Assembly (NCBI GenBank): GCA_024679065.1
Contig: JAGIQG010000040.1
Location: 3,844,001 to 3,908,000 of the forward strand
From: Sphyrna mokarran
Lineage: Eukaryota
DNA length: 64,000 nt
Direction: 5' to 3'
The notes beneath the pieces are model-generated. The model was not told where the DNA came from and searched no databases. It was given only the letters and a program-made list of their open reading frames with translations. Every line of letters starts with the position of its first letter. The stretch's first letter is position 1. Below, one piece after another: positions 7,873 to 61,114 of this stretch. The position numbers and the translations under genes were made by a program.

Positions 7873-8083
7873 TCCCAGTCCCACGGGAGAACATCAAGCT
7901 CTCTCAATAGCACCCTTCCAACACCACATTCCATCACCACCTTCCATCCCCACCGTGATATTCACCGAGTGTACGCTATTAATGGTCTGAACCTCCACCC
8001 AATTAAGGCACTGGGACAGAGCAGAGGGACAGAGAGAGATAGACGAGACCACAATGGATCTTGTCATGGAATCAAAGGGTGTG

Positions 8084-8141
8084 TATGGAGAGGTTGCAAA
8101 GCTCATCTTCGGCAGTGGAACCAGGCTGATTGTAGAACCCA
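8084..8141 (+). CDS. TRDJ: TCR delta J segment 1, YGEVAKLIFGSGTRLIVEP
   Basis: GGATCTTGT(8056-8064)-12-GGGTGTG(8077-8083); FGxG motif; phase-1 donor GTAAGT at 8142. Confidence 0.92.
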
Positions 8142-9565
8142 GTAAGTAATTAATCCCGGATAATGATGACTCAACGTATTATTTTCCCGGCGACTTCATT
8201 GCTAAGTTACCTCAATTTGCACTGTTGTTGTATGGACCAGGTGAACAGAATTCGTTGGGAATCCAAACAGCGGCTTCACTGTACGCTGAGACAGAGCAGA
8301 TATGAGCTTCATTGTTTCCAAAATTCAGGATTGTTTCTTTAAAATATTTAACTGGCCTTTACCATGAAAACCCACCTGGGTGGCGAGCAAGGAGACGTAT
8401 TAGCGAAATGGCTGTGTGCAATGCGATTGAATAATTTATTGATAGATCGTTAGATGAGGCACACTCCGATAGAGCCATCAAATCATAGAGATAGACAGCA
8501 CTGTAAAAGCCGCTTAAACCGAATGAGGGGCAGAGATAGAACAGACAGGAAGATACTTATGGTCATTTTAAAGGGATCAATGAGCATTTTGGAGGGCGTG
8601 GGGGGGTGTGGAGTGCATTGATTTAGGTACGGCGTGGGAGACTTAGAGGGACTGTGAAGAGACCTTTTTCGCCCTAAGAGTGATGGGAGTCTGGAACTCA
8701 TCGACAGAGGCCCTCACAACACTTGATTGGAAACTTTTGGTGCCATATTATGCACCACAATGAGCCAGGAGCTGGAAATGTGATTAGAAAGGTCAGCTAG
8801 CTTGTTTTTGGCTGGGACAGACACGATGGGCCGAGTGGCCTTTGACATACTATAGACTTCTGTTTTATTCCCTAGTGGCAGAGTCCAGGACCAGAGGTTA
8901 AATCCTAGAATAAGGGGCTACCTATTTAGAGAGAGACGATGAAGAAATTCTCCCTTCAGGTGGTACCGAATCTATGGATTTCTTTACTGCAGAGGGATGT
9001 ATAGACTGCCGTTAAGTGTTTTCAATGCTGGGATAGACAGATTTTTAATCCACAAGGAAACGAGGATCATGGGGACACTGTTGGAAAATGGAGTTGAGGA
9101 TTATCATATCAGATCAGTGGTGATCTCATTTAATGATGGGTGAGCCGAATAGCTTCCTTCTGCTCAGAGAGAAGTGCCAGGGGAGATGGAAAAAGTGAAT
9201 CATGGAATCTCTACAGTGCAGAAGGAGGCCATTCGGTCCATCGAGTCTGCGCCAACCACAATGCCTCGCAGGCCCAATATATCCACTTACCTTATTAATA
9301 TCTCTGACACTGCTGTGAGTTTAGCATGGCCAATCAACCTAACACGCACATCTTTGGACTGTGGGAGGAAACCGGAGCACCCGGAGGAAACCACACAGAC
9401 ACAGGGAGAACGTGCAAACTCCACGCAGACAGTGACCCAAGGCCGGAATTGAATCCGGGACTCTGGCTGTGAGGCAGCAGTGCTAAACATTATGCCACTG
9501 TGCCGCCCTCCGTCAGTGTCTTGTCCAAATATTGTGCTCTTTAAAATATTAAAAAAGGGAACTAA

Positions 9566-9568
<3 letters not shown>

Positions 9569-9626
<58 letters not shown>

Positions 9627-9630
9627 TGTG
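9569..9630. repeat. (GT)n microsatellite; others at ~21235, 21415, 22271, 24335-24386, 24456-24491, 57310-57392
   Basis: Perfect dinucleotide runs, which account for the CV/HT-repeat ORFs in the track. Confidence 0.97.
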
Positions 9631-9796
9631 TTGGGGAAGAGGCAGTGGAGGTGGGCGTGGATGAACAGGGTGCAAACGGTTATATTGTTCGAAGAGAAAC
9701 AAATTTAAAAAAGTAATAATAACTCAAAGTCAGTATCAGTTAGGTCTGTGTTCATTTTGCTTGGATCTATACTTTGTCATAAGTACTACCGCTGTG

Positions 9797-9855
9797 CTAT
9801 GATGAAGCTGCGAAGCTCGTCTTCGGTAAAGGGACAAAACTCACAGTGGAGCCCA
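9797..9855 (+). CDS. TRDJ: TCR delta J segment 2, YDEAAKLVFGKGTKLTVEP
   Basis: ATACTTTGT(9769-9777)-12-CGCTGTG(9790-9796); FGKG; donor GTAAGT at 9856. Confidence 0.92.
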
Positions 9856-10489
9856 GTAAGTCATCAATTATTTTCCACCATGACTTATTTACACTAGGGA
9901 AACAACTGAAAGTTTCAGTTCGAATATATCTCACCAAAGTTTTCAATCAGTATCGACTTTTGGCGGTGGGAGAGGTAATATAATGGCTATTAATAACTTG
10001 GGGAAGTCTTATGGCACATTGTGTTAAAGTATCTGTCCCTGAGCCAAAAATGCCTGGTTTGAGTCCTAATCAATGTGCTTGATGGCCAAGGGAGGTGAGT
10101 TTATAATGTGGTCCAACACGAATGGTAAGAGTAGGATAGACTCCTGCTCAAAAACAGACTTGATATGGAACTTTGATCTTTAAGTCCCTAGCAACATTAT
10201 AGCGACCTGTTCCAGAAATAACTAGCTCTAGAAGCAAGTTAATTCTGCCTTTGTGCACCACTAATTGCAGCAAGTGAATTTGGAGTTAGATGTTCTTATT
10301 GTTATAGAATCGTATAAAATTCATTGTTCCTCTTCTGCTAGTAAATGTATTTTAACTCTTTATACAACATAGCAGTTTTCTAGGCATCCAGCCTATTAGT
10401 CAGTATCCCAATTTCCTTGCTATGTGAATTAGTCAGAAACTGAATGACCTTATGCATTGATAGCCCTCTGCTGGCAATGCGAAACAGTG

Positions 10490-10555
10490 CTTATTATTAT
10501 GACGGTACTTTGGAACTCACCTTTGGCAGCCGAATCCAACTGAATACTGTGCCAA
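10490..10555 (+). pseudogene. TRDJ: Defective or ORF-class J segment 3, YYYDGTLELTFGSRIQLNTVP
   Basis: FGSR replaces FGxG; heptamer AACAGTG (10483-10489) with a poor nonamer; donor GTAAG intact at 10556. Confidence 0.75.
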
Positions 10556-11174
10556 GTAAGTGCCAGCTGCTTCCTCTTTACCGTTTGACATACTTTTCTG
10601 TTGAGCCGGTGTCTGGCTAATGTGACAGAGAGCGAAAATAATTCATGAATTCAAATTAATAATAAGTTGTTACATGGATCAACATATCATTAGGTAGCTA
10701 AGTAGAGAGGCAGAGATCCAGGGGATATAATTAATAAATTCACGTGGCAGAAAAAGTGGTGATGTGATAAATGGAGAGCAGGAAAGCCTTACATCATAAA
10801 ACGATACAGAGAGAAATAGGCAGGGCAATGGTCAAATGGACTGAGCAGTGGAAAATTGAAATTTAACTCTGAAAAGTATGGGATGACACATTTTGGGAGG
10901 ACTAACATGACAAGAGAATACAGAGAAGTTAACGAAACCCTACATAGAAAGAGGGTTAGACTTCTAGCTCTGTGTTGTACTTTTGTGAACTAGAGAAAAT
11001 CAAATAGAAGTGGGAATAGTTGGGAGATGGTTTCGGGGACAGGCATAGTTCATTTTCTTCTTGCAATTTGAATTCTAATCTATAGGCAAAACACCAAGCA
11101 AGACAACTACGTTTCCTGTCATTACTGTTCCCACGAGAGTAGCCGATTTGTTTCACATCGATAGCGACATTGTC

Positions 11175-11232
11175 ACCCCCACCAATGAAAAGCTGATTTT
11201 TGACACTGGAACCAAAGTCACTGTGGAACCCA
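11175..11232 (+). pseudogene. TRDJ: J pseudogene 4, PTNEKLIFDTGTKVTVEP
   Basis: FDTG motif, donor mutated to ATAAG, heptamer CATTGTC. Confidence 0.8.
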
Positions 11233-11554
11233 ATAAGCACCTTCGCAAAATGTAACAATGAAGCAGTGCGGATGCGGAAAATCTGAACAATATTTATTGA
11301 GAATGAAATTCCAGACCGTAAAGTGGATAGAAATATATGTCATATGGTGCTAATAGGCTAGAAAGGGAATTGCATTTAAATTGGTGGATGGGAAATGTTT
11401 TTCTTTCAATATATACACTGCTTTGGCTATTGAAGTAAGCAGAATCTGAAATTAAACCCAAAACTCAAACTCAGGAGAAACAAAATATAAATAAATCTTG
11501 TATTTCGGTTCATCTGGTTCGGTTTAATTATTTGTCACATTGTGTACAGATGTG

Positions 11555-11614
11555 CTCGCGCCAGAACTTTAAAACTTATCTTTGGCAGGGTAACGCATTC
11601 ACTATTGCAACTCA
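11555..11614 (+). pseudogene. TRDJ: J pseudogene 5, ARTLKLIFGRV...
   Basis: ATTATTTGT(11527-11535)-12-AGATGTG(11548-11554); KLIFG followed by decayed sequence; donor ATAAG. Confidence 0.7.
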
Positions 11615-11808
11615 ATAAGACATTGATAATATTCAGTTTGGATCTGGTTAGAATTGAAGCAGCTGAAATTTCCTTCTGGGGCTCTTCCTAATGTGAACTT
11701 TGTATATATTGCCCTGCCTCGAGTTAGTGAGTGTGATTTATCATGTGTTAAATGACACATGCATTTTCACTCCATTGGAAGGTTTATGTCTGCGCCCTTT
11801 GCACTATG

Positions 11809-11869
11809 CATTATTATGATACCATGAAGCTCACATTTGGCAGAGGGACCCAGTTGACTGTTGTGCCAA
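11809..11869 (+). CDS. TRDJ: TCR delta J segment 6, HYYDTMKLTFGRGTQLTVVP (non-canonical heptamer)
   Basis: GGTTTATGT(11781-11789)-12-CACTATG(11802-11808); FGRG; donor GTGAGT at 11870. Confidence 0.88.
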
Positions 11870-12113
11870 GTGAGTACGGTTGGAAGTTACATTCATTTTG
11901 TTTCATGCAGATTATATTTTCGCATTATGGTGTCTGATGAATAGCAAGTAAGCAACAATACAAAGTATTAATGGAATATAGTTGAAAGCATTTTGTCTGT
12001 AAGGTGAGCTTCAAGAAGGTAGGGAGACAGCTAGCTCAGGTCTCAATGCTTATTTAGACATGGCAGACCAATTTTTGAACCTCAGCAATGTGACAGGTAT
12101 GGATGAGTGCCTC

Positions 12114-15100
12114 ATAGAAACATCGAAACGGAGAAGATCGTAGCAGGAGGAGGCCATTCGGCCCTGCCAGCCCGCTCCGCCCTTCAGAGTTGGGCAATCA
12201 GAGTTGGTCTGATTGCCCAACTCAGCAGCCCAATCTTACTTTCTCCCCAAAACCTGTGATACCATTCGCCCTAAGTGCTATATCTAGCCACCTCTTGAAT
12301 ATATTCAATATTTTGGCATCTACTACTTCTTGTGGTAACGAATGGCTCATTACGCATTGGGTGAAAGAATATCTCTTCACCTCCGTCCTTAATGGTTTAC
12401 ATGAATCCTCAGACTGCGACTCCTGGTTCTAGATTCTGTCACCATCAGGAATATTCTCCCTGAATCCCTGTAAGTCTCAGATAACATTCCCCCCTCATTC
12501 GTCTGCACTCCAGCTGAAGCAGTCCTAACCTCCTCAATCTCTCCTCATACATCAGCTCCGCCATCCCGTCACTAACATCACTAGTGACAGTTATAGGACG
12601 GATATCAGAGGTAGGTTCTTTACCCAAAGGGTGGTTCTGGAGTGGAATGCCCTGCCTGCGGCAGTTGTAGATGCGCCAAGTTTGGTGGCGTTTAAGAGGT
12701 TAGTTGATAAGTATATGGAAGAGAAGGGAATGGTTTAGTTTGGAGGGGCATTGCTTTTTATATTGGTCGGCGCAACATCGAAGGCCGAAGGGCCTGTTCT
12801 GTGCTGTAATGTTCTATGTTCTATGTTCTATCCCCGGATTCAGCCTGGTAAAGCTTCACTGCAGTCCCTCGAGAGCAAAGAAATCCTTTCTCAGAAAAGG
12901 TGACAAAAACTGCATACAATATTCTAGGTGCGGCCTCACCAAATCCCTGTGTAATTGCAATAACACATCTCTGCTCCTTGCTCAAAACCTCTCGCAATGA
13001 AGGCCAACATGCCATTTGCCTTCTTTACTGTCTGCTGTATCTGCATGCTTAACTTCAGCGACTACTGAATAACGACGCCCAGACCTTGATGCAAATTCTC
13101 CTCCCCCAACTTATAGCCATTTAAGTAACTACCTGCTTTTTTGCTTTTGCTTCCAACGTTCACTTTTATCCAGATTAAACGGCATCTACCATTGATTTGA
13201 CAGCTCAGACAATCTGTCAAGATCAGAATGAAGGATCCTTGTCACAGCTCACCCTCCCATCCAACTTGATGTCATCTACAAATGTTGACTTGTTATATTT
13301 TGTTCCCTCGTCCAAATCACTAACATATATTGTGAATAGCTGGGGTTCCCATACTGATCACTCTTAAGACATGCTGCCTACCAATTTGTAAATGGCTTAT
13401 TAATTCCTACTCTTTGTTTCCTCTCTGTCAATCAGTTTTCTGTTGATTTAAGTGCACTTCCGCCAATTCCATGCACTTTAAATTTGCCTGATAATCTCTT
13501 ATATGAGACTTCGTCAAACAATTTCTTAAAATCCAAATATACCACATCGACTGGCTCCCTCTTGTCAACCCTATTCTGCACATCTTCAAAGGATTCCAAC
13601 AGATCTATCAAGCATGATGTCCCCTTCATAAATCCATGCGAACTCTGTCTAATCCTGCCACTGCTTTCAAAATATTCCGCTATAAATAATTGATGATGGA
13701 TTCGAAAGTTTTCCCCACTTTCGATGTTAGGCTTACTGGTCTATAAATCCCTGTTTTCTCTCTATCTCCTTTTTTGAATATATGAAACATTAGCTACTCT
13801 CCAACCTGCAGGGATGGTTCCAGAGTCTATATAATTCTTGAAGATTACGATAAATGCATGAACTATTTCTAGAGCCACTTCTGGGATGTACTCTGGAGTG
13901 TAGATAACGAGGCCCTGGGGATTTATCCACAATCAATCCCATCAATTTTCCTACCAACAGTTCTCTACTAATGTTCATCTCCCTCAGTTCTTCCCTCTCA
14001 CTTAATTTTGCATTCTCCAACATTTTTGGCATCTGATTTGTGTCCTCATTTGTAAAGATAGAACAAATGTATGTATTCAGTTGGTCAGCCATTTCTTTGT
14101 CCCCTATTATACATTCCTTCATCTCTGTCTGTAGCCGTTCTACATTTAGTTTCAGTCTTTATGTTGCCTGTAACCTTACTGTATTTTCCCTTTGTTAATC
14201 AATCCCTTCGCGCTTTTTTGCTGATTCTAAACTTCTCCCAATCCTTAGACTTATTATTAGTGTTCTTGGCCAATCTCTATGCTTCTTCCTTGAGTCAGGT
14301 ACTATCTCTAATTCCCTTAGTAAGCCATGGATTGGCGCTCTTCGTTTATTGCTTTTGTGCCAGGCAGGAATAAACAGTTACTAAAGTTCCCCCATGCGTT
14401 CCTTGAATGTCTGCCGTTGCCTATCCATTGTCATCTCTTTAAGTATCTCTCCCCAATCTATGAAAGCTAAATCAAATCTCATATCTTCATCAAGATTCAG
14501 CACAGTAGTCTCCAAGTCAACTACTTCACTCTCCATCTTGATAAAAAAATTCTGTCATGTTATGTTCACTCATTCCAAAGTGTCTCCCACAGCTAGATTG
14601 GTAATTATTACCTTCTCACGATACAGTACTCAGTCTAAGGTGGGCTGCTCCCTAGTTGGTTCCTTCACATATTGATCAGGGAAACCATCTTGTATCCACT
14701 CCAGGAATTCCTCCTCTACGGCATTGTGGCTAGTTTGATTTGTTCAATCAACATACAGATTAAAATCATCCCTGATCACCGATATTCCCACATCACTGCA
14801 TCACCAATTTCGTGTTTAATGCATTTCCAACATCACCACTGCAATTTCGGTGTCTATATATGACTGACGCTTTCTGTCCCTTGATATCTCTCAGCTCTAT
14901 AATGTATAGATTCCACATTATCAGAGCTAATATTATTTAGAACATAGAACTTAGAACATTACAACACAGAACAGGCCCTTCGGCCTTCGATGTTGCGCCG
15001 ACCAATTAAGAAAAAGCAATGACCTTACAACCTAAACCATTCCCTTTTCGTCCATAAACTTATCCACTAACCTCTTAAATGCCACCAAACTTGGCGCATC

Positions 15101-15490
15101 TACAACTGCCGCAGGCAGGGCATTCTATACCCTAACCACCCTCTGGGTAAAGAACCTACCTCTGATATCCGTTCTATAACTACCATCCCTTAATTTAAAG
15201 GTATGTCCCCTCGTGCTAGCTTTCTCCATCCTCGGAAAAAATTTCTCACCAGTGTGTTAATTTCCTCTTTAACCAGCAGTGCCACTCCACTATCTTTTCC
15301 TTTATGCCCACCCTTCCTAAATACTGAATAACCTGGGACATTCAATTCCTATCCCTTGTCACCCTGTAGCTATGACTCCGTAATCCCAATTATATTGCAC
15401 CATTTACATCTATCTGCTTGATTAGTTCATCCACATTATTGCAAGTGCTCCACGCATTAAGCCACAGTGCCTTTAAACTTGCCTTTTTAA
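12114..15490 (-). mobile_element. Long decayed CR1 ORF2 (endonuclease to 3' end), with young CR1 3' fragments nested at ~12590-12830 (+) and ~14939-15240 (-)
   Basis: Fragments LKALWLNAWSTCNNVDEL, DKSPGPRYLHSRV, VDVVYLDFKK and MYEERLRRLGLLQLE occur in CR1 order. Confidence 0.85.
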
Positions 15491-15699
15491 CATTGATTGC
15501 CTGTTTCCCAGTATTCTTCTCTATAGCCCTTTTTGAAGTTTGCGTTTGGTTTCTCTGCTGATCATTTTTCTTGTTTCCTTTCCTATCTCTTGTTTTTGTC
15601 CTTGTTCTCTCTTTCCCTGACTCCTTACATAGGTTCCCAATCACATAGTATCTTAGTTTCATTGGTTGACCTTGCATCATTCTGAGGTGGTGAAAGTGG

Positions 15700-16010
15700 A
15701 AGGAGGCAATGGCCTAGTGATATTATTGCTAGATTATTAATCCAGTAAATCAACAAGTGTTCTGGGTTCAAATCACGCCACAGCAGATGGTCGAATTTGA
15801 ATTCAATAATCTGGAATTAAGAATCTACTGTTGATGATGAAAAACCAGTGTTGGAAAAACCCATCTGGTTGATTAATGTCCTTGAGAGAAAGAAATCTGC
15901 CATTCTTATCTGATCGGGCCTGTACGTGCAATTTTGTGGATTCTCAAGGGCAATTGGGAATGGATAATAAATTCTGGCCAGCCAACGGTGCCCATATCCC
16001 ACGAATGAAT
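15700..16010 (+). mobile_element. tRNA-derived DeuSINE/SacSINE1-like element; related copies at ~1-60, 25050-25350, 33810-34130, 59320-59620
   Basis: tRNA-like head (tggcctagtg...gggttcaaatc) and a recurring core aaacccatctggtt.a.taatgtcctt.ag.gaa.gaaatctgcc. Confidence 0.6.
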
Positions 16011-16612
16011 AGAAAATAGCCCCCTTTTGGAAAATGAGCACGTTGATTCAATTAAACATAAACGCACCTTTCAGACTCAACATGTCTGTTTATCTCTTCG
16101 AAATCTAACAGGATTATGACAATAAGAACATATAATGCTGGGAAAAACCACAGCAGGTCAGGCAGCAACTGGAAGGAGAGAAAGTTTAGCTAACAAATTA
16201 AATACTATTGAATTGTATTTCTTTTCTGCCAGGTGTTGAGGCGTCACTGGTAAGGCCATGTTGCAAATTTCTGTTAAGCCATTTCAGAGATTGGCAGAGC
16301 AGGCGCAAAGTGCTGAATAGCCTTCCCTTGATTCTATGTTACCTACATCTGGTGCGGGGGGAGGATGTGGATAGTTATATTTGACCAGTGTCTACCTTGG
16401 CTCAGAAGTTCTTCACTTTGATAAAATCTTAGTGCATCCAAGGAGGCAATTCGGCCCATTTAGCCTGTGATGGTGGGGAGGGGGAAGATACATATTTATC
16501 TGTTACCTACAGCGAATCAGTCACTGTTCCAGATTTGCTTTTGCCGTGAATTGTCTGAAATCTGAAGCAGCTATCTCAATAGAAGGTTTCTGTCTAAGCA
16601 ATTCTTACAGTG

Positions 16613-16661
16613 TATGATAAGCTAACGTTCGGCAGCGGCACCCAGGTGACAGTTGTGCCAA
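16613..16661 (+). CDS. TRDJ: TCR delta J segment 7, YDKLTFGSGTQVTVVP
   Basis: GGTTTCTGT(16585-16593)-12-TACAGTG(16606-16612); FGSG; donor GTGAGT at 16662. Confidence 0.93.
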
Positions 16662-17428
16662 GTGAGTATGAAGTCAGTTTGTTTTTATTCTTTCAGTCCA
16701 CATCTCCTCTGTAATCTAGTTTTCTGTTGTAAGTAGTCTAGTCGAGTTGGGCAGAGTGCCAATACAATATGTAGCATGCAGGCGAAGAGATTGCACAGTT
16801 TTGAGTCAATTTTGATCTAGCTCAGCTTACCCAGGCATTCGAGCTCCATGGGATAGGAGTTGGGGCTGCAAGCCTCAGTAATATGATATTGAACTAAGAA
16901 GCAGATTTGTGCCCTGTTAACGCGTTAGGAAGATTCAATCCAGAAAAATGACCAAAAAGAAAGAGGGGAGACGAATAAGTATCAGTGTTCTGTTTAAACC
17001 TTTGTAATTGTGAATTACATAGGCCTTTTATTCTCTTGGTGAAAAATAAATTTTCCTCATATTATTCCCACATCCGTTGACTATGAACGCTGGTTCTGGA
17101 CCCTGTCGTCATCCTACATCTACCCTGCCTAATCCTGCATTATGGGTTTTAATGAGATCTTCCCCTTCTGCCTCTCTTCTTCTGAACGCCAGAATATAAA
17201 GTCCTAACCGACTCAATCTCCCCTCATATATCATTCCTGCCATTCCAGAATTTGACGCTGCACTCCCTCTTTAGCAAGAACGTCCTTCCTCCGATATTGT
17301 TCTGCATATGTTTCTGGAGGCAATAATGAATCAGCTGTGAAAGCAAATCGAATCATAAAAACCTTAGCATGAAACACATTGCTATTCATGTGGGTTATGT
17401 CGGTTTTGTACTATCTGGTATCACTGTG

Positions 17429-17479
17429 CAACTAGAAAGCTTATCTTTGGCAGTGGAACCAAACTCACTGTAGAACCCA
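17429..17479 (+). CDS. TRDJ: TCR delta J segment 8, TRKLIFGSGTKLTVEP
   Basis: CGGTTTTGT(17401-17409)-12-CACTGTG(17422-17428); FGSG; donor GTAAGT at 17480. Confidence 0.94.
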
Positions 17480-20400
17480 GTAAGTGAAACGATTCTCTGC
17501 ACTTTGTGTCTGGTTATAGTTTAAGAAAGTAATTTCAAATTATAATCCACCTGTAATGAATCTTTGTCCCGTAATAGCTACTGTTGAATTGATGGGAGGG
17601 ACAGAGGACGAGCGAGAGAGGAGTGAAAAATTAAAATGTTCTGACAACTCTGTGTTAGAATTTACAAATAGCAAATTATTAGGCTCCTACAACGACGGAG
17701 GAGACCGTTAGGCCCACCGCTCTTGCTTCAGAACAATAGAATTATCATTATTAGTTTTACAGAACAGAAAGAAGCCTTGCGGCCCACTGTGCCTGCTCTA
17801 ATCATTAAACCCCTATCTATCCCAATCGCATTTTTCAGCACTTGGTTGTAGCCTTGTATGCTACGGCATAAATAATCTTTGAACTTGCATGCAAAGATCC
17901 CTCTGATTCTCTGCATTTTCTCACGTCCTACAGTTCATTTTACATTCCCTGCCTTGTTACCCCTCGCAAAATGCATCACCTCACACTTTTCAGATTTAAA
18001 TTCCGTTTGCCACTGGTCTACCTCTCTGACCAGCTCGCCCATATCGCCCTGTAACCTTTGCAAGTCAGTGACATTTAACCTCACAGGAAAAACATGTGTG
18101 CATCCTTGGCTTGACTTGGTGTGAAATTTATATCCAGCTCTCCAGAAATAATGCATATTAAATATCTTTCTTCTGTCCTCTGCGAGGTAAATATGATTCA
18201 GCTTCTGCAATGCCAAGCTTCTGTCTTGGAAAATGTTCCTGCACATTTACTAATCACTACAGTGAGACACCCACACTCTTCAATGAAATATGTGACCAGT
18301 AAGGATAAACTTACTTAATGTCATTATCTGCTGTGTGATGGACAGGGAGCTAGCATTATGTGGGAAGGCAATTGAGGACATTGCACTGATATAATGAATT
18401 TGCGCCGCTGAATATCCAGCTCAGCTCCTCCTAAAATTGTAGTGTGCAGTTTTTCTAGCTCCAGACCTTAAGTGATGTCATATTGGACTCACAAAGTGTA
18501 ATTTCATTTTCCTTTCTTGATGTGGGCATTTCTAATTGCCCACTGGGCAATTTCAGATTCCACAACGTTGCTTCTTGGATCCAAACAGCTGACAGCCTAT
18601 TTCCTTCCCCAAAGGAAGTGTTGATCCAAATGGGCATTTACAACCCATGGTAGATGTCCTATTTTCATTCACAAACTTGGCAATAGTAAATTCACTTTTT
18701 TATCCAAGTCATTATGTAGATTGTAAATTATTGTGGCTCGAGGATTGACCACTGAGGCATTCACTTGCAACAGATTGTTATCCTGAAAATACTCCTCTTA
18801 TACCAACTCTCTGTATCGATTAGCCAATCCTCTATTCATGCGAGTATATTACTCAAAAAGCATGAGCTCTGAATTAGCCCTTTGTCCAAGATCTTATAAA
18901 AAGCTTTTTGCTGCAAAGATAAGATGCCAACCATTGAATGGCAATGCCTTTTTTAGGGCATTGGTCCATAGTTGCCGTAGTTCTTACTTGAGGCTACATT
19001 TCGATCAATTTATTTGAAATTGCTCCAAGTGCTGGGATGGGAATTGAACGTATTTCTTCTGGGGAATTAGCCTAAATGCCTGTTCTACTAATCCAATGGT
19101 ACTGCCATTTCGCTGCAACCATCCCATAAAGTTACATGAAGAATGTTTAGTGACAGTTTCAATAAAAAGTTTGTTAGAGTCGATATCACAGTGATGAATT
19201 TTGTGTTGTAAGCTTTATGAAAGAAGTAATATTCAGTGCCATCACTCAGCACTGTCCTTCATGGAGATATATAGTGTAGAGAAAGATAGAAAATAGGAAC
19301 ATGAGTAGGCCATTCGACAGTTAGACCCTGCTCTGCCATTCGACACAACAATGACTGACCCTGTAACTCAACACTATACTAGCCTTCTCCTCATAATTCT
19401 TGAAGGCTTTAGAGTATATTAACATATTTCCTTTTAAAATGTACTCACTGACTTCGCATCCACAAACTTCTGTGGTAGACAACTACAGTTTTATCAACCT
19501 CTAAATGAAGATTTTTTTCCTCATCTCAGACTTAAATATCAACCCTGTACACTGAAACTTTGATCCCTTTTTCTCGATCCCACCCCGCCAAAAAAACAAC
19601 AAAATGCCTGCCTCCCGTCTGCTCATCCCTGCTAGAATTCTATACATTTCAATGACATCACCTCGCATGTTCTAAACTCCACATGAATACAGATGCAATC
19701 GCCTCTCTAAAATGACAATCCTGCCATTCCAAGAATTAGTCTAGTGTGCTTTTTTCTGCACTCTTTTTATTCCAAGTGTATTCTTTCTTCGGTAAGGAAA
19801 CCAAAATTGCACACAATATTAGCAATATTATCGTCAAAAAAGGTATCGTCAAAATTGGATTTAGGAAATGTTTTAATGGAAGAATGTGAGATATATGTGG
19901 CAAAATGTTTCCTGATTTCGCCCTCGAAAGCCTTAAACATTAAAAATCGTTTAAAATCCAATTTGCTGAAATAAATCTTGAACTCCCCAAACAGTAGCAA
20001 ACGTTCCTGTTTATCAACCTTCTCCGTTTGGGAATGATTAACTCACTCCTTAACTATATTCCAGCGTTTTAGAGTTAAACATCATTAATTAGTGTTAATC
20101 GGGCTCTCTCAACATATATACAGCTTACAGAGTAAAATGTCTTCTCCTCCTACTCTGTTCATGGATTTTTTTGAATGCTGATTTTTAGTTTTACGAGAAA
20201 CAGAATATAAATGTTGCCAGCTCTGATTGTGAACTCTTCTTTATTTCAATAATTGATCTCAGATCTTCACATTGAAACATAAATATTAAGACCCGAATGT
20301 ATTTTTCAGTGTCTCACTGTCTGTGCATTAAGACATTCATTGATTAATCCTTAGTCTTAGCATATGGACATTTATTAATAACATGGTTCATTGATTTTTA

Positions 20401-24712: not shown

Positions 24713-25024
24713 AGGCGAGAGACCCGCAAAAACCAAAATTGAGCGTCTTTTATCCGCCAGTGCCACCGGATGCCTCCAACATCAACACAGCTGCAGTATG
24801 CTTAGCCTCGGACTTCTCCCCCAAGGAAATCGAGCTCTCCCTGTACACGGGATCCGGCCAGGAGGTCAATGTGACAAGATCCAATGTCCTATTGGAGAGC
24901 GGGAATTACAGGAGCTCGGGTTTCCTGCCTTTCCGCCAACTCGAGATATCGCCAAACATCACGTGCAAGGCATTTCACAATAATCATAGTTACTCAATAA
25001 ACATCTCACCCACAGCTCAAATTG
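24713..25024 (+). CDS. TRDC: TCR delta constant region exon 1 (Ig C1 domain)
   Basis: Acceptor ttttcAG at 24711-12; ARDPQKPKLSVFYPP..AAVCLASDFSPKEIELS..SSGFLPF..NITCKAFHN; 312 bp, phase 1-1; donor GTAAGT at 25025. It follows a D segment and J cluster and resembles shark C-delta as recalled. Confidence 0.95.
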
Positions 25025-25519
25025 GTAAGTTCATTTTATTTTCATTCATGTGATGTGGGTGTCGTTGCCATGGCCACCATGTATTGCCCATCCTAAATTG
25101 CCCTTCGCAGAAGATATTTAAGAGTCACATGCCAGCCAGACCATGTACGGACAACACATTTCCTTCCCTAAAGGACATTAGTGAACCAGATGAGTTTTAA
25201 CGATAATCAACAATTGTTTCATGATTATCATTAGACTTTTAATTCTATTTTTAAGAAATATTCAAGTTTCACATTTACAATACCCAGATCTGTATCCTGG
25301 GTCACTGGATTGTTAGCCCAGTGACAATGCCACTGAGCCACTGCCTCCTCTAAGAAGCTTTTGTGATTGGAAGATCGTCCACCAAAATATTATCCAACTT
25401 TTTAACGACGGAAGGACTCTTGTGTCATCGTCACTCAAAATGTAATCTTTTTGAAAGGTTAGCCGACTAATGACTGAAGGTCTCTGGATTTTACGGCATG
25501 AGTTCTTCAGTGTCTCAGA

Positions 25520-27520
25520 CCTAACCAGCTTCAGTTGCTTCATCAATCACTTTCAATCCATTAGAGGGTCTGAAGTTAGGATGTTCGCTGATGACTGAAC
25601 AACATCAGCACCATTCAAGCCACCTCAGATCATTACAACGGCAGCAATAGCTGGACAATCTCTAGGCTTTGACTGACAAGCTGCAAATAATATTTGCGCC
25701 ATACATCTTCCAGGAAATGACCAATTCCAAAAGGAAAAAAGCTAACAATTGGCTCTTGATATTTATGGTATCACCATGATTGAAAGAAAGGGCAAAGAAC
25801 AAAGAAAATTACAGTACAGGAACAGGCCCTTCGGCCCTCCAAGCTTGCAGCGACCATGCTACCCAAATTCATGAAACCCCCATTGCTTCCGGGGACCATA
25901 CCTCTCTATTCCCATCCTACACGCTCCTTAAAACTCACTATCGTATCTGCTTCCACTACCACTCCCGGCAATGAGTTCTAGGCGTCCACCACTCGATATG
26001 TAAAAATTCTGCCTCGTACATCTCCTTTAAACCTTGCCCTCGCAACTAAAATCTATGCCCCCTAGTAATTGACTCTTCCACCTTGGGAAAAAGCCTCTGA
26101 CACAGAACATAGAACACAGAACATTACAGCGCAGAACAAGCCCTTCGGCCTTCGATGTTGCGCTGACCAATTAGGAAAAAGCAATGACCCTCCAAACTAA
26201 ACCATTCCCTTTTCGTCCATAAACTTATCTACTAACCTCTTAAACGCCACCAAACTTGGCGCATCTACAACTGCAGCAGGCAGGGCATTCCATACCCTTA
26301 CCACCCTCTGGGTAAAGAACCTACCTCTGATATCTGTCCTATAACTACCACCCCTTAATTTAAAGCTATGTCCCCTCGTGCTAGCTTTCTCCATCCTAGG
26401 AAAAAGGCTATCACTGTCCACCCTGTCTAAACCTCTAATCATCTTATATGTTTCAATAAGGTAGACGATTCAATCGATTCAATCTGTACATGCCTCTCAT
26501 AGTCTTGTAGACTTCTATCAGGCCAACCCCCACTATCAACACCTTGTGGGTTAGCGTTGCTCAGAAACTGGACTGGACTATCCCTATAAGTGCTAATGCT
26601 GCAAGAGCGGGCCGGAAATCGGGAACCTTGTGGTGAATAACATATCTCCTATTTCCCAAATCCTCTGCACCATCCACACGACATAATCATGAACGTGGTA
26701 GTGTATTCGCCACTTGCCTGGATGAATGCAGCTCCAACACAAACAGAAACTTGACACGACCCAGGGCAAAGCAGCTCCAATTAATTAAATGTTTATTTAT
26801 TAGTGTCACGAGTAGGCTTACATTAAAACTGCCATTTCTATGAAAATCCCCTAGTCGCCACACTCTGCGCCTGTTCGGGTACACTGAGGGATAATTTAGC
26901 ACGGCCAATGCATGTAACCAGCACGTCTTTCAGACTGTGGGAGGAAACAGGAATACCTGGATCAAACCCACATTGACACAGGGAAAATGTGAAGACTCTG
27001 CACAGAGAAGCCAGGAATCGAACCCAGATCTCTGACGCTGTGGCAGGGAGGGGAGGGGGGAGGGAGATGGTAGATGGCCGTAGTACTAACCACTTGTCGC
27101 TCCAGCATTAAGTACTCCATTCACAAACATCCACTTCTTCCACCACCCAAGCACAATGGCAGCAGTGTGCACCATCCACAAGTTACACAGCAGTAACTTT
27201 CTAAGTCTCCTTCAGTTGAATCGTCCAAACACATGATCTTTATCATCTCACAGGACAAATGCAACAGATACCTGGGAACACCATTATCTGGATGTTCCCT
27301 TCCAAGTCACTCAGCTTCCTGACTTGGAAATGTTTCGGCCGTTCCTTCACTGTGGCTGGGTCAAAGTGGTCGAACTTCTTCCCTAACAGCACTATGTGTC
27401 TACGTACACCTTACAGACTGTAGAGGTTCAAGCAGGAGATTCACAGCCACCTTCTGAAGGTGGCAATTAGGGAATGGGAAGAAATGCTGACCTGCCAGCG
27501 ATGATGTTCACATTCTGTAA
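25520..27520 (+). mobile_element. Decayed non-LTR retrotransposon 3' part with nested CR1 and SINE pieces; a related fragment lies at ~62720-62960
   Basis: MFADD-like motif at ~25581 and the shared block caagagc.ggtcagaggct/ctgtccaccatc.acaagg; young CR1 3' end at ~26100-26460. Confidence 0.6.
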
Positions 27521-28017
27521 ATGAATAAAAATAATAAAAGCTGACTATTACATTTCAGGGCACTGTCCAGGACCGGCAGCTGCTGGTTCATCACCGAATT
27601 TGGGAAAGTATTAAATACTAGCCGGGATACTGGAGAATCCCGCTCCTCTGGAGAAATGCCCTGACTTCATTAATCTATTGCAGGGCTGAAATCAGGCCTC
27701 GGTTTCACGAGTTCTTCGGAAGACAGTGAAATACTGCATCGATGGAATGGTCTGGAGTCTGGGGTTTGATTCCTGTTGGGTCATCGACCCTGCACTCTTT
27801 GAACTCAGATTTGGGCCGAACTAAATGGCAGAGCTACCAATGTTTCTCCGTTGTGAATAATCAAGTGAACAAGTCCAATCGTGCTGTTTGATTCTTACTT
27901 TCTTCGTGGCTATTGATTATGACAACAACATTATTCGAAGTGATATTGAGAACAAACATAGTTACAGGAATGTCACTTGCTCACTAAATAAGTCAAACGT
28001 ATTTTTTGCCCTTCCAG

Positions 28018-28080
28018 ATAAACGTCAATGCCCTACAAGTCGAAATGATTCCTTGACAGAATTAAGTCACCCAGAAAACG
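28018..28080 (+). CDS. TRDC: TCR delta constant exon 2 (connecting peptide with interchain Cys)
   Basis: cttccAG|; DKRQCPTSRNDSLTELSHPEN; 63 bp, phase 1-1; donor GTATGT at 28081. Confidence 0.9.
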
Positions 28081-28490
28081 GTATGTGCTTTATTCAATAT
28101 TTATCAAAGTAAAATACTTGCAAATAGATTAAGAAGTGGACAAATATGCACGGATAGAGACGGGAGATCGAATGATAAACATATAGCGAGATGGGGAGAG
28201 AGATAGATTGTCACACAGGGTGAGTGAGAGAGATATATAAATCCAGGGAAAGAGAGGGGGCAGGGGTTTGGAGAGGGAGACAGAAATTCAGATTGAAGGA
28301 GAGATGAAGATAGATAGACAGCAGGCAGGCGGGCCGGCAGATGAACGGACGGACAGGGATGGACAGACGGACGAAAGTCAAGCAGTTAAGTAATAAAAAA
28401 AATCACATTAGTGGTAAATAGTTGTTTTTCAATTCCAAATAATATATACATTAAACCAGACTTATCATTCTTTTTCTCTTATTTTGGCAG

Positions 28491-28601
28491 ATCAAATAAG
28501 GGCGAACTCTTTGTCTTTGACGGTGATGGGGCTAAGAATTTTGTTTTTCAAGAGCATTGCCTTCAATGTCATGATGACGGCCAGGGTGTGGCTATTTTGA
28601 G
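28491..28601 (+). CDS. TRDC: TCR delta constant exon 3 (transmembrane), stop TGA 28598-28600
   Basis: DQIRANSLSLTVMGLRILFFKSIAFNVMMTARVWLF* has the R and K residues typical of TCR alpha/delta TMs; donor GTAAG at 28602. Confidence 0.95.
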
Positions 28602-53717: not shown

Positions 53718-55009
53718 CATAGTGACACTGAACACGGGGAGAGCTGGATAAATACTTGATTATTGCGAGGATTCCAGCCACACTGATATAGAACACGAAG
53801 AGATCTGTACAAAAACCTGAACATGGTGCAGACTACAGACACAATGATACAGAGCACGGAGAGAGCGACACAAAAACTTGATCATGGTGAGGTTTACAGA
53901 AGATGTGGAGATGCCGATGTTGGACTGGGGTAAACACAGTAAGAAGTCTCACAACACCAGATTAAAGTCCAGCAGATTTATTTGGGAGCACAAGCCACCA
54001 TCTTTCGGAGAGCTGCTCCTTCATCATGGTATTTCAGTTCATAAACAAGGCATATAAAGACACAAGCTCAATTTACAAAGTAGTGGTTGGAATGCGAGTC
54101 TTTACAGGTAATCAAGTCGTAAAGGTATAGACAATGTAAGTGGAAAGAGGGTTAAGTGTAGGTTAAAGGGATGTGTATTGTCTCCAGCCAGAACAATTAG
54201 TGTGATTTTGCAGGCCCGGGCAAATCATGGGGGTTTTAGATAGCGTGACATGAACGCAAGATTCCGGTTGAGGCCGTCCTTATGTGTACAGAAATTGGTT
54301 ATCAGCCTGTGCTCAGCGACTCTGTTTTGTCGTGTGTCATGAAGGCTGCCTTAGAGAACGCTTACCTGAAAATCAGAAGCCGAATGCCCGTGGTCGCTGA
54401 AGTGTTCGCAAATAAGAAGAGAACATTCTTGCCTGGTAATTGTCGAGTGGTGCTCATTCATCTATTGTTATATCTCTGATGGTCTCCCCAATGGGACATC
54501 CTTTTCTGCAGCTATTGTTGGCTGAGTTGTAATGTGCTACCATGTATCTGGTGCATGGTGTTCTCACATGAGTTGATGGTATCGGTGTCGATGATCCAGC
54601 ATGTCAGGGTTGTGTCGTGTCATGGTCACTGTTCTCCTGAAGGTTGGGTAGTTTGCTGCGGACAATGGTCTGTTGAAGGGCCTGGCCTTGCAAAGTCTCA
54701 TCAACTGTCGTGGCTGGAGACAATACGCATCTCTTTAACTTATGTTTAACCCTCTCTCTACTCGCATTGTCTGTACCTTTAAGAATTGGTTACCTGTAAA
54801 GACCATTAGTTTGTAAATTGAGTTTGTGTCTTTATATGCCCTATTTGTGAACTGAAATCCCACTCACCTGATAAAGGAACAGAGCTACGAAAGCCAGTGG
54901 CTTGTGTTACCAAATAAATCTGTTTGACTTTAACCTGGTGTTGTGAAACTTCTTACGATGATCATAGACCCGCAGTGATGCAGAACACGGAGAAATCTGT
55001 ACAAAAAAC
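53718..55009 (+). repeat. Tandem array of 23-RSS units (61-bp period), interrupted by a Penelope element
   Basis: CATAGTG-23-ATAAATACT (53718-53756), CACACTG-23-ACAAAAACC (53779-53817), CACAATG-23-ACAAAAACT (53840-53878), CGCAGTG-23-ACAAAAAAC (54971-55009). Confidence 0.9.
53901..54956 (-). mobile_element. Penelope-like retroelement fragment (GIY-YIG C-terminus) with an inverted terminal copy
   Basis: Minus strand reads IGET..MNEHHSTITRQECSLLICEHFSDHGHS..HKDGLNRN; ~53938-54180 is an inverted repeat of ~54730-54956. Confidence 0.8.
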
Positions 55010-55055
55010 TGACCGTGGCAAGGGTTACACATTCCTGTATTCCTCACCATGTCCA

Positions 55056-55213
55056 GGTATTTGTACCTTTCTCTCCATGCACTATATCACCATATCTGTA
55101 GCACTCAACGTGTTTACATTTTTGTACAGCCCTCTCTCTGTTCTGTATTGTTGTTGTCTGTAACACCATGTTCAAGTTTCTGTACAGCTCTCTCCGTGTT
55201 CTGTATCACTGTG
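55056..55213 (-). repeat. Second tandem 23-RSS array (three units, 58-61 bp period)
   Basis: Nonamer-23-heptamer units at 55175-55213 (CACAGTG/ACAGAAACT), 55117-55155 and 55056-55094; the last two have degenerate heptamers and related spacers. Confidence 0.85.
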
Positions 55214-55529
55214 CTCTGTGCCGACTCAGTGCGCAGTAATACACTGCAGAGTCACTCGGTTGCAGTTTGGAGATCGTTAACCGGCTGAATTTTTCAAGGG
55301 GATCGACAGATGCAGAAATTATTCCCCGGCAGCGTTTTCTTTGCTCGTCTCGCCTGACTTGTGTCTCTTAGGCAGGTATTTTGAGGTCTGTCCTGGGGAA
55401 TGCCGGTACCAGTAGAGTGTATTCACAGTTATTCACAGGGATATTCACAGTTTAAAGTAATGGTGTCGACAGTAGCAGAAGTTTGGAGAGATGGGTTCTG
55501 GGACACAGATAAACCGGATGCAGCAGAAC
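55214..55529 (-). pseudogene. NAR-TCR supporting V-delta pseudogene (leaderless, downstream of the NAR-TCR J)
   Basis: ctatAG|GSAASGLSVSQNPSLQTSATVDTITLNCEY..NCEYT.YWYRHSPGQTSKYL..SKLQPSDSAVYYCALSRHR with stops and frameshifts; perfect heptamer in its 23-RSS. Confidence 0.85.
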
Positions 55530-56455
55530 CTATAGGATAAAGCTAAAGATTTCTGTGATGATTTTACCAGCCTTGCATGTTAGTTTGCCCGAGGAAACAT
55601 AATCGCGTCCATAGCTGGCCATTTTGCCGTAATTGTTTCATTGAAGGGTGTGCCACATTTATTCACTGCAGTTGGGGAGACAGAATCATCTCTGCATTCT
55701 ATATTATACCGAATCTGCAGAACAGAAATAGGCCATTTCGTCCACTGGCGTGTGCGTTTCTTAACACTGCACGCGTGCCCACTCCCCTCTCACACTCGAT
55801 CCCTACACTCTGAGCACTGTGTCCTTCTCCCTCCTCGATTATTCAAGCCTTAACACAAATTCCTTATGCCATTTACTGCAACCATGCCAGGCGAACTCCA
55901 CATTCTTCCTAATTTCTTCCTTTTATCTTAATAGCATCACATATAAATACTTCCTGACACTGAATCATTTTCTCTACATGTATATTAATGAAACTATAAC
56001 ATAGTGTTTAACATTTTTTTTCCTAATTGGTCGGCGCAACATCGAAGGCCGAAGGGCCTGTTCTGTGCTGTAATGTTCTATGTTCTATTTATGTCAACAA
56101 CAAAAGCAGAAAAATGCTGGAAGATCTCTGCAGGTCTGTCAGCGTCTGTGGAGACAGAATAGAGTCAATATTTCCAGTCTATTTGATCCTTTGTTAGAGC
56201 AAGCCTTCCCTACAGCTTGCTTCATCTTTGGCGATCGCGCACTTCTGCAATCTGGCCTCACATTCGGACCCGATTCCAGTTTCCTTGTCTACTCCCAAAC
56301 CTAAAACTGCAATTGGAAATCTTCCACAGGAACCACCACTCCCCCCACGCTGCTGTTGTATCACAGAGGATTGGATTGAGGCAGATTGCAAAAATGAACT
56401 GACGGTAAACACTAACCAGGACAGTCGGCAACAAAGGGTATTTGGATTCACTTAC

Positions 56456-56508
56456 CGGCTGAGACAGTCACCAGCGCCCCATAATCATCTGTAAATCTCC
56501 ATCCTCCA
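56456..56508 (-). pseudogene. NAR-TCR/IgH-like J segment with a 23-RSS, GGWRFTDDYGALVTVSA
   Basis: RSS 56509-56547 reads CATTCTTGT-23-CACTGTG on the minus strand; ends VTVSA G|GTAAG (phase 1); the W/F-GxG motif is degenerate. Confidence 0.8.
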
Positions 56509-56867
56509 CACAGTGATAGAACTCTCAGTCAGCCCAATACAAGAATGACTGACACCTCAACTTGCCGGGAAAACATTACCAAATAAACAGCATTTATTGA
56601 TTATTCAGGGGTGAAAGATCAATCATGAACAATGATTGTTTTCTAACCATCATTCAATCAAACAGTTCCTTGGGACACCGAGAGCCCTTGGCAAAACGGA
56701 CCTGGAAAATTCAATGAAAGATAACTGAACGGAAGAAATTACGACGAAATTAATCCATGTTGCAATGATAATGACAACAACCCGATCAGTTATATTCCGC
56801 GCCCTGGGAATTATTGCTTTGATTGTTCGGAGATATTTAAATATTTGCCCTTCTCTCTTCCACTGCG

Positions 56868-57312
56868 GTGTTCCATATCTGTAGTACCAACTGAGCTTTA
56901 CAGTAATAGGTGGTTGTGTTTTCAACTCTCACATCGTGAATTTCCAGCGAAAACATAATTGCAGCTTTATTCACCGACAGAACAAATATCCCTCCGCTGG
57001 AGATTCGCTCCCACTCTGTCCCGGTCTGGTTTTGTCTGAAGAAATGACATTTTCTAAATCATAACCACCAGAGAAAACAAAGATGATGTGAGAGATTGAA
57101 ACTCCTCCTGATCACCACTGCCGGACTCTGCACCACTAACTCACTGCAAGATCCTGGAAATTAAACGCAGAGAGTTTAATGGACCATCAGAGCGGAACCA
57201 CACAACGGGGCTGAAAACCCAGGCAGCGTCTGCAATTGGAATGTACTGGGGTGCTTTATATTCAATCCACGCAGTGTGGGTTAGTTTGATCGGTACTCAC
57301 TGGGTAAACACA

Positions 57313-57394
<82 letters not shown>

Positions 57395-57413
57395 TGAAAA
57401 CAACGATTCGCAT
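56868..57413 (-). pseudogene. NAR-TCR V (IgNAR-like V) pseudogene: leader 57301-57413, V exon 56868-57153, putative 12-RSS 56840-56867
   Basis: ttccAG|RSCSELVVQSPAVVIR../FRQNQTGTEWERISSGGIFVLSVNKAAIMFSLEIHDVRVENTTTYYCKAQLVLQIWN shows the IgNAR-type short FR2-CDR2 region and YYCKA. The 5' part is frameshifted. Leader MRIVVFIV(CV)nVCLP|gtgagt. Confidence 0.88.
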
Positions 57414-58422: not shown

Positions 58423-60017
58423 ATGTCACAGGATTTCAGGGCTTCCATTCTTATTCTTTTCCTGAAGCTCGGTGAGTTGTTTAACAAGCATTGGAATGCA
58501 GATTTGCAAAAATAATATCGAGGGATGGCTGGATGTAGGAAAAGAAGTGAGACTAGGGGCAATTAAGGGAATAATAGAGGATGGACGGATGTATGTTTTT
58601 CTTGAACATTCACTTTGCTTATTCCGGTTTACAATAGTTTATTGTAACTGAAAGGGGGCATTGAACAGAGGGAAACATTGGATTATATATATTCAAAGAT
58701 CTGAAAGCGTCAGAGTAAATTTGAAAGTTTCTGGAAACATTTCCAACTCTGACCTCTATGCATAGGAATAGTGTACATGTGAAGTGACATTAAATCAAAT
58801 ATTTCTGCATCCGTACTCAGGCCTTTTTTAATGTACGTTGTTTAGTTATGGGTATTAAATCTAATGAACAGCAGCATGGTCTTGGGAAGGGTAAAGGAGG
58901 ATTTATTGGAATGGTCTCTGTGATCAGGATCCTTAGGTTTCAGGGCACACTGAAATAACAGGAGTCCCTTTCTCAGAATACAGGCAGGTAACAGAAGATC
59001 TGAAAGTGATGTTGATGTCTCAACTGTGTAAATTGTTCCAAGCGACAGAAAGCTGGGTAACCAGGGCGGGTTATCCAGCTGAGGAGAATGGAAAAATGAT
59101 TCAAAGGAAGAATTTCCTTTTTTGAAATGGTGGTCCAAGCAGATTTCATGCTAACTGCTAAGAGGAAGCAGGATGAATATTTGGAGAGAAATATTTTCCA
59201 GATTATGCAGAAAGAGTAGCGGTTGGGGGAAATGATAAATCTGTCATCTGTCAATAGGTGACATGTGTGTTTGCCGAATTACCCATTCCTTTTATTCATT
59301 TGTGGCTTCCGTTCTAATTATTTTCCTAAAGCGACTGGGTGTCGCTGGCTGGCCAGCACTTCCTGCTCAGTCTTAGTTGCCCGAGGGCAATTTGGAGGCA
59401 ACCACAATTGTCTGGAGCCACTTATAGGCCAGACCAGGTCAGAAGGGCAGATTTCCTTCCCTGAAGAACAATAGTGAACCAGATGGGTCCATACGACAAT
59501 CGACAATGATTTCGTTGTCAATTCTTAGTTCCAGTTTTTTTACTGTTTTCAAATCCTGCCGTGGCGGGATTCCTGGCTGAATTTCTCCATTAATTAACTA
59601 GCGATAACATCAATGGGCCACCGCCTATTATGATGAGGAGATGAAAGTTTTTTTAATAGTGTCCCATGTCAAAACACCTATTTATTTTCTGTTTATTATG
59701 TATTTGAAGGATTGTGTTATTCTGATACTGTTACGCAACTTACATCATCGGTATCATGTTTGGAGGAAGAACGCATGGTGTTGCCCTGTTCATTTTCCAC
59801 AGACCGCCGCCGCTACGATCTGCTCTGGTACCGACAAAAAACGGGGGAGGAACCGGTTTTTTTAACCAGAAGGAATTCGGAAGGACAAACAGAGAAAGCT
59901 GAGCATGTGGGAGGCCGATTGTCTTCAATGCTGCAAGCATCGAATCGTTTCTACAGTTTAACGCTGACAGATGTACAGCTGAGTGACAGTGGCATGTATT
60001 ATTGTGCGCTGAGCATT
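58423..60017 (+). CDS. Apparently functional TCR alpha/delta V gene (leader 58423-58471, V exon 59710-60017)
   Basis: Leader MSQDFRASILILFLKL G|gtgagt; ~1.2 kb repeat-expanded intron; DTVTQ..LPCSF..LWYRQ..SDSGMYYCALSI is open; CACCGTG-23-ACAGAAACT at 60018-60056. Confidence 0.9.
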
Positions 60018-60527
60018 CACCGTGATACAAACTTGTAAAGGCCCCGTACAGAAACTATGACTGGAATATCACATCACTCGAGTGGCTGAACTCCGAATCT
60101 TCACCTCTGGCGGCAGCAGAACACGCCACGGACTGTTCACAGCTGTACGATTTTAATCAGAAATAAAACGTTTATCCATGTAAAAGACCGACACTTTATG
60201 ACTGAATATTTAGTCAGAAAACTGACCACTTCAGAAAATGAATCTCAGGCCTCAGTATCGCTATAATTAACCTTACACCATAGTTTGTACTCAGTGAGTG
60301 ACTGACGCCGAAGCAAATATTTCACCTTGTTGGTGAAAGAACTTCAGCTGACACATGGCCCTGATTTGATTCTGGTTGAAATATCTGGCAGATATTTTGC
60401 AAATTATTTAATTACCTGGAAAGAATGATGAGGAATTGATTTTGCCTATCTGAATGCAGTGTGGTGTTGGCCCTGGTTCCGGATGAACATTATAAAGGGA
60501 GAGAGAGGTTCGGGCTCGGCAGCGGCC

Positions 60528-60947
60528 AAGCAAATATTTAAAGTCTGGATTGTTTTGAGGATAGTGATTCTCGGTAACGATGATTATAGGTGTGTTCAAC
60601 TAAAGATAAAATGTTGATTATGTGTTAATGCGCCATCTTGTTTTGTTCCTGAACACATTGCAGATCAGAATGATAGAGCTTCAGTTACTCAGTCTCAAGA
60701 ATCAGCGAGAATGAGAGAAAGTGAAATCGTGACGATAAAATGCACCTCTCGCACTACAGAAGAAGGTATTATGACTATTGTTATCGACAGGAACTAGTGA
60801 AGAAGCCCCAGTTTGTTGTGTGGAGACAGTCTTGGAATGTTGTCAGCATTAGGAAACCGTTTTGTTTCAGACCTCCAGCTGTCAGATTCCACCACAAGTT
60901 TAATCATCATGGACTTGCTGCAGTATATTACTGTGCTCTCTCTGGGA
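60528..60947 (+). pseudogene. TCR V pseudogene, paralogue of the V at 51247-51692
   Basis: Leader 60528-60573 with ATG changed to AAG; V exon from 60664 has frameshifts and deletions (SVTQSQ..TIKCT..VVWRQSW..AVYYCAL); CTCAGTA-23-ACAAAAACG at 60948-60986. Confidence 0.88.
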
Positions 60948-61114
60948 CTCAGTAACTGAAAATAAGAACGACTATGTACAAAAACGTCCTTCGAGTTGAA
61001 ACTGCGGTTTTTACCTATTGATATTGAATCGAATCTTGACAGATTCAACTACAACAAAGCTGTGAGCGAGGTAAACAGAGAAGAGTCCAATTAACTTCTG
61101 TCAACTGCTGCACT

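Follow-up and report, generated by a model that had tools for sequence, protein, structure and literature searches.

A probable dead NAR-TCR cassette inverted downstream of a D-J-C-delta unit in Sphyrna mokarran

A stretch of 64,000 nucleotides from Sphyrna mokarran (assembly GCA_024679065.1, contig JAGIQG010000040.1, positions 3,844,001 to 3,908,000; the window) holds what we consider, with a probability of roughly 85%, to be a dead NAR-TCR cassette. As assembled, it is found 27 kb beyond the 3' end of an intact D-J-C-delta unit, facing the other way. A leader, a NAR-type V, a J and a supporting V-delta, all of which a sequence-only reading had placed here on the minus strand, were found there at 57,413-55,175 (Table 1). 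Features shared with the NAR-TCR cassette of cartilaginous fishes, which reportedly goes back to Criscitiello et al. in 2006, include the order in which leader, NAR V, J, leaderless supporting V-delta and 23-RSS follow one another, and the linkage to D-J-C-delta, here to a D, to five J and to a C-delta with an open frame, all within the window. The cassette adds one more copy to a shark unit that is well known, and a published table already contains NAR-TCR genes in inverted position.

Table 1. Features of the window (positions counted from its first letter) and the Mustelus asterias gene models used for comparison
Feature	Position or model	Strand	Remarks
D-delta, candidate partner	7791..7872 (D 7819-7833)	+	5' 12-RSS, 3' 23-RSS
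Five J-delta with 12-RSS	8056..17480 (near 8.1, 9.8, 11.8, 16.6 and 17.4 kb)	+	
C-delta, three coding exons	24713..28600 (24713-25024, 28018-28080, 28491-28600)	+	splice to one open frame
Conventional V-alpha/delta neighbour	51208..51692	-	leader, open V exon, 23-RSS; inverted relative to C-delta
Second supporting V-delta, broken	53419..53878 (V 53419-53717)	+	stop at 53427, deletion near 53520, CDR1 Cys kept
Supporting V 23-RSS and two decayed rungs	55056..55213	-	RSS 55213-55175; rungs at 55155 and 55094; period of ~60 nt
Supporting V-delta, leaderless, pseudogene	55214..55529	-	+2 at ~55437 (9-mer repeat over CDR1); -1 at ~55321-55327
NAR-TCR-type J	56456..56508	-	open frame; G-S-G motif decayed to D-Y-G; phase-1 GTAAGT donor
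Cassette J 23-RSS	56509..56547	-	perfect heptamer, 3 nonamer mismatches
V-end signal, decayed	56840..56867	-	heptamer-like CGCAGTG at 56867; best-fit spacer 12, at chance level
NAR-TCR-type V exon, pseudogene	56868..57153	-	preceded by an intact AG acceptor
NAR-type V leader exon	57301..57413	-	113 nt; (GT)43 run at 57308-57392 swells the exon; out of phase with the V exon as assembled
Conventional V neighbour	59718..60056	+	open exon, 23-RSS; same direction as C-delta
Broken V neighbour	60420..60986	+	72% identical inverted relative of the V at 51.3-51.8 kb
C-delta models of Mustelus asterias	P0016, P0022, P0028-P0030, P0032, P0034, P0038, P0076, P0077, P0105-P0107		

The leader begins with an ATG at 57413, is followed by a GT donor after 57301 and ends in V-C-L-P, as do the leaders of intact models in the protein comparison; it is of the type seen in the NAR-TCR family, its phase having been lost through the (GT)43 run. 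The frame of the V exon is broken by three one-base losses, near 57106, 57080-57088 and 57048, and the first canonical Cys is gone. NAR V is characterized, in the portions of PMC1845163 consulted, by the lack of Trp in the 'WYRK' strand and by a Cys in the a-b loop. The strand reads H-F-F-R-Q in the window copy, with no Trp, like the intact models. The a-b loop Cys, found in 42 of 42 intact models in which the motif could be located, is replaced by Phe; since this codon is one base away from a Cys codon, the loss is read as decay.

A recombination signal had been proposed at the V end. A candidate is indeed placed there, directly after the Y-R-Y-G-T end as in model P0009, and this position is what speaks for it: it has 5 mismatches in total (counted, as in all our scans, against the RSS consensus), and 122 of 200 control stretches scored as well or better. 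A 12-spacer V signal, permitting direct V-J joining, was rejected as its score is at chance level. Unlike in the known cassette, the RSS scan revealed no D segment in the V-J interval at a score above chance, a candidate 5' signal near 56783-56756 being at chance level. The J, expected to carry its own RSS and a phase-1 donor, has both, and the score of its 23-RSS was reached by none of 200 control stretches of 400 nt. Five to six of its 14 residues match five reference J stretches. Its donor is in phase with the supporting V, and the intron leads from the J directly to the supporting V exon, over 0.93 kb.

The leaderless V-delta anticipated behind this J was likewise recovered with its 23-RSS, which has 2 mismatches and a score that no control stretch of 200 matched; by its letters this signal looks usable. 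The Cys that had been assigned to CDR1 of the supporting V lies within the third copy of a 9-mer, CTGTGAATA, which occurs three times and repeats the framework Cys codon; it appears to be such a duplicate. In the reading with the fewest lesions CDR1 has no Cys, the loop being overwritten by the repeat. The supporting V of NAR-TCR carries this Cys according to the part of PMC1845163 at hand, as do 43 of 45 intact supporting V models. Because it is present in the intact models, in the neighbouring copy and, by hand reading among the differences listed, in contigs of runs X2 and X7, which keep P-G-F-C-Q-H-T, its absence here is also read as decay. The proposed acceptor was upheld in part: an in-frame AG remains at 55531-55530, but the site homologous to the acceptor of the neighbouring supporting V, 9 nt further downstream, reads TG instead of AG.

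The surroundings of the cassette are rich in V genes. V exons lie behind C-delta at 51.2 (-), 53.4 (+), 55.2 (-), 59.7 (+) and 60.7 kb (+), besides the NAR-type V at 57 kb (-), and the cassette is likely an ordinary member of a large V gene array running both ways. Two elements had escaped the sequence-only reading. One is the second, broken supporting V, which faces the cassette tail to tail; the other is the stacking of three 23-RSS rungs, about 60 nt apart, on both supporting Vs (at 53718, 53779 and 53840 on the second), followed in both by the same repeat element at a similar place. Rungs two and three of the second supporting V are nearer to the consensus than its first. A further rung, in the opposite direction and with no V exon before it, was seen at 54971-55009 (+). 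No NAR V was found upstream of the second supporting V by tblastn, sensitive blastn or a profile search, and no J was seen there. From 51118 to 61077 the window is roughly mirror-symmetric around 54.4 kb, with a V(-) and a supporting V(+) in the left arm, a supporting V(-) and a V(+) in the right, and 66-72% identity between the arms; this symmetry would be accounted for by an old inverted duplication about that midpoint. The V at 59718-60056 points away from the D-J segments of the window, and the 12-RSSs of the first two J-delta (8056-8083 and 9769-9796) are weak, with 5 mismatches each. Long open frames at 2769-4622, 5951-6925 and 34472-37374, the longest of 617 residues, resemble by eye pieces of LINE reverse transcriptase or endonuclease.

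These neighbours bear on an alternative which we hold to be a serious contender, albeit not the favoured one: that the D-J-C-delta of the window is one of many dispersed TCR-delta clusters with no J-alpha or C-alpha behind, and that the cassette is duplication debris which may have served another C-delta. This would be compatible with a dead NAR-TCR cassette. In Mustelus asterias, 13 gene models contain C-delta, with 11 distinct tails and on contigs of 12 lengths, a number that exceeds two alleles; six of the 13 carry a NAR V and a supporting V, and one more carries a supporting V. The first C-delta exon of the window is 73-77% identical to eight Mustelus models, as against 41-49% to six models from other sharks. 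In Heptranchias, two C-delta models (P0044 and P0056) lie on one contig. The model counts in these two sharks suggest multi-copy TCR-delta clusters. The mirror symmetry described above points the same way, as does the lack of any J segment or J-alpha in the 35 kb behind C-delta, where a motif search and a pattern taken from the accessible part of PMC10322711 gave no real match. However, the gap between C-delta and the TCR-alpha model in the stingray is 79 kb in the consulted portion of PMC12227049, so that 35 kb without J-alpha proves little, and an inversion of the whole D-J-C block (compare the great white shark table discussed below) would explain the neighbours equally well. The Mustelus copies may moreover include unmerged haplotypes, the gene models give no distance from cassette to C-delta, and the tree speaks neither for nor against the two supporting Vs being sisters (AU test, p 0.47). 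Shark TCR genes are described as a translocon in the parts seen of PMC6795676 and PMC12227049. Multi-copy shark C-delta was not reported in the titles and abstract beginnings that were searched, a coverage outside which most subscription papers lie.

The dead NAR-TCR cassette, as we prefer to read it, is identified by its anatomy and by its identities to known sequences. The alignment score of the NAR V was 258, compared to 12 or less in 25 random stretches of the window. With an open piece of 59 residues from this V, the top 11 matches among solved structures were all VNAR chains; in a search of a protein collection, 26 of 27 candidates matched, all of them shark gene models, and in 20 of 21 retrieved shark models the NAR V continues into a supporting V. 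Pfam found no family for the same piece, which amounts to half a domain. The best match, at 81%, was LOC121270138 of the great white shark, a gene labelled NARTCRdV in table S1 of PMC12227049. Computed on a read-through translation with X at the breaks, the median identity of the NAR V was 65% to 42 V domains of NAR-TCR type, 44% to six IgNAR V, 34% to two IgH-like V and 25% to two conventional V. Of 18 columns in which NAR-TCR V and IgNAR V differ, it agrees with the former in 8, with the latter in 3 and with neither in 7. The supporting V agrees with its own class at 16 of 24 diagnostic columns.

A tree was computed from 44 rows, which included 14 of the 42 NAR-type and 14 of the 45 supporting-type models. 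In the best tree the split between NAR and non-NAR domains had an SH-aLRT support of 100, the V of the window was placed among the NAR-TCR V (83), and both supporting Vs of the window fell inside the supporting-V clade (97). AU tests, run on 43 rows after a long elephant shark row had been dropped, have low power on such short domains and rejected none of the alternatives, whether the NAR V was grouped with IgNAR (p 0.53) or with IgH-like V (p 0.077), or the supporting V with conventional V (p 0.31). The tree test by itself would be insufficient for the assignment, which rests on anatomy together with identities. The view of the sequence-only reading that this is a pseudogene of NAR-TCR type is sustained. 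By identity, diagnostic columns and the best tree the repaired translations stand apart from conventional TCR V and IgH-like V, as had been expected, although the AU tests rejected none of these alternatives.

The similarity to VNAR chains raises the question of whether the upper half of the cassette is a stranded V-J of an IgNAR antibody, beside a TCR V pseudogene. The two V types are alike: IgNAR V (Triakis scyllium BAJ20185-88 and Chiloscyllium VNAR) is also a short single-domain V and is 37-47% identical to the copy in the window. The solved structures that match best are VNARs, the grouping with IgNAR was not rejected by the AU test, and the a-b loop Cys is absent. Against this stand the higher median identity to NAR-TCR-type V, the F-F-R-Q strand without Trp, and a leader and a J of the type of the NAR-TCR models, together with diagnostic residues that are those of NAR-TCR. 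The anatomy differs as well, as neither a multi-D array nor an IgNAR constant exon was found behind the V; what follows the J instead is the leaderless supporting V of a TCR. We consider this origin very improbable.

The state of the NAR-TCR cassette was examined part by part. The reading frame is lost in the leader and in both V exons, and the J motif has degenerated; in these points, and in the loss of the a-b loop and CDR1 Cys residues and the decay of the V-end signal, the window copy differs from the known cassette. No damage is seen in the J heptamer, the supporting V RSS, the V acceptor or either splice donor. The proposal that all parts had decayed together was thus too strong, and decay looks stepwise. 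Run X1 contains 94% of sampled words, and its contigs are identical to the window over 55181-56041 and deviate from it by a single letter, without a gap, over 56109-57241. As the letters of V and J are given there without a gap, the lesions are unlikely to be consensus errors, although X1 may be the source sample of the window and hence does not prove fixation of the lesions in the species, and the leader lies outside the covered stretch. That the cassette is live and its frameshifts are one-base errors of long-read assembly, as might be suggested by the single-base losses in the NAR V and by the parts that are intact, is hardly credible in view of the gapless X1 contigs over both V exons and the J, the base changes that hit conserved positions in the a-b loop Cys, the J motif, the V heptamer and the homologous acceptor, the 9-mer repeat over CDR1 and the long end branches in the tree, whose lengths of 0.30 and 0.39 exceed the median of 0.16.

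Contigs from related sharks give an indication of the order in which the dead cassette was broken. Compared to 57000-57106, an X7 contig has 6 differences and one gap, among the differences listed, and its copy appears to share the middle frameshift of the NAR V. From these letters the NAR V was probably broken first, in an ancestor common to related sharks, and CDR1 was overwritten later in the lineage of the window; this order assumes that the contigs of the relatives are orthologues, and they may be paralogues. The X3 and X7 copies also lack about 0.6 kb within 56360-57000, which takes away the J and the two signals along with the 3' half of the NAR V; 639 nt including the J are missing from the X7 contig, and the same joint is present in X3. 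In one X3 contig, over 56508-57022, the first base of the J, exactly at the heptamer, is joined to the middle of the NAR V. This joint, seen in a single contig, adjoins a heptamer-like CAGAGTG (57018-57012), with 4 letters in between, and looks like an inherited joint of recombinase type in the copy of a relative.

The NAR-TCR chain is made by two separate rearrangements, according to the sections consulted of PMC1845163, PMC5931798 and PMC3457774. While the cassette was intact, a first cut by the RAG recombinase would have joined the NAR V to its own J, and a second would have joined the supporting V to D-delta or J-delta. With the D of the window, the second join would have been an inversion of 47.4 kb, bringing D, J and C behind the cassette, and splicing of the cassette J to the supporting V would then have yielded a V-V-C delta chain. 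The geometry proposed earlier for an inversion of about 47 kb was confirmed: the supporting V 23-RSS and the 12-RSS of the D have the same orientation and are 47,395 nt apart, an arrangement that, judged from signal positions, fits the 12/23 rule, although the event itself is our inference. If the supporting V were joined straight to a J, the distances to the five signals would be 37.8-47.1 kb. With the frame broken in its leader and in each V exon, the cassette is incapable of giving a V-V-C chain today; since the supporting V signal looks usable, it may at most take part in non-productive joins.

An inverted place of this kind is probably ordinary for sharks, as judged by comparing layouts. 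In table S1 of PMC12227049, to which the following counts are limited, all seven NARTCR rows of the great white shark lie 3' of the TCR-alpha C model, four of them in the opposite direction and one marked 'pseudo??'; this layout comes from one assembly, and the table sheet has no separate C-delta row. The three NARTCR rows of the stingray are all opposite to C-delta and 2.1-2.5 Mb upstream of it. Section 6 of the same paper does not discuss the orientation of NAR-TCR genes. The mouse Trdv5 joins a D by such an inversion, in the part of PMC4995090 available. Like the supporting V, it is a V with a 23-RSS, downstream of C-delta and opposite to it, in a position to join the 12-RSS of a D by inversion of D-J-C; unlike it, the window holds a dead cassette with two V, among five V exons in both directions. 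The closer counterpart of Trdv5 is the open conventional V at 51.2-51.7 kb. No inverted NAR-TCR pseudogene was reported in the titles and opening lines of abstracts covered, which take in few of the subscription papers. The inverted layout may already be visible in the nurse shark locus map of Deiss 2019.

NAR-TCR cassettes are described in PMC1845163, PMC5931798, PMC3457774 and PMC6795676 and mapped in table S1 of PMC12227049, each as far as the consulted extracts go. Another TCR chain with two V domains, the marsupial TCR-mu, is treated in the portions consulted of PMC2275272 and PMC3457774. It differs in its IgH-like V and in a locus and constant region of its own, and arose convergently; its tandem cluster layout provides a model for a clustered reading of TCR-delta. 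In smoothhound-type sharks, TCR-delta might have departed from the rule of a single constant gene and been multiplied into antibody-like clusters, with many D-J-C-delta units, often with NAR-TCR cassettes, free of J-alpha and C-alpha. The window would be one such unit, and its dead cassette and mirror twin would record the inverted duplications by which the units spread. We regard this broader picture as doubtful, somewhat more so than the dispersed-cluster alternative for the window itself. If true, it would mean that TCR-delta has come to be organized in clusters like shark antibody genes, a step that marsupial TCR-mu took on its own, and it would raise the question of how each T cell picks one cluster. 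The cassette is useful as a marker for the birth and death of whole cassettes beside C-delta.
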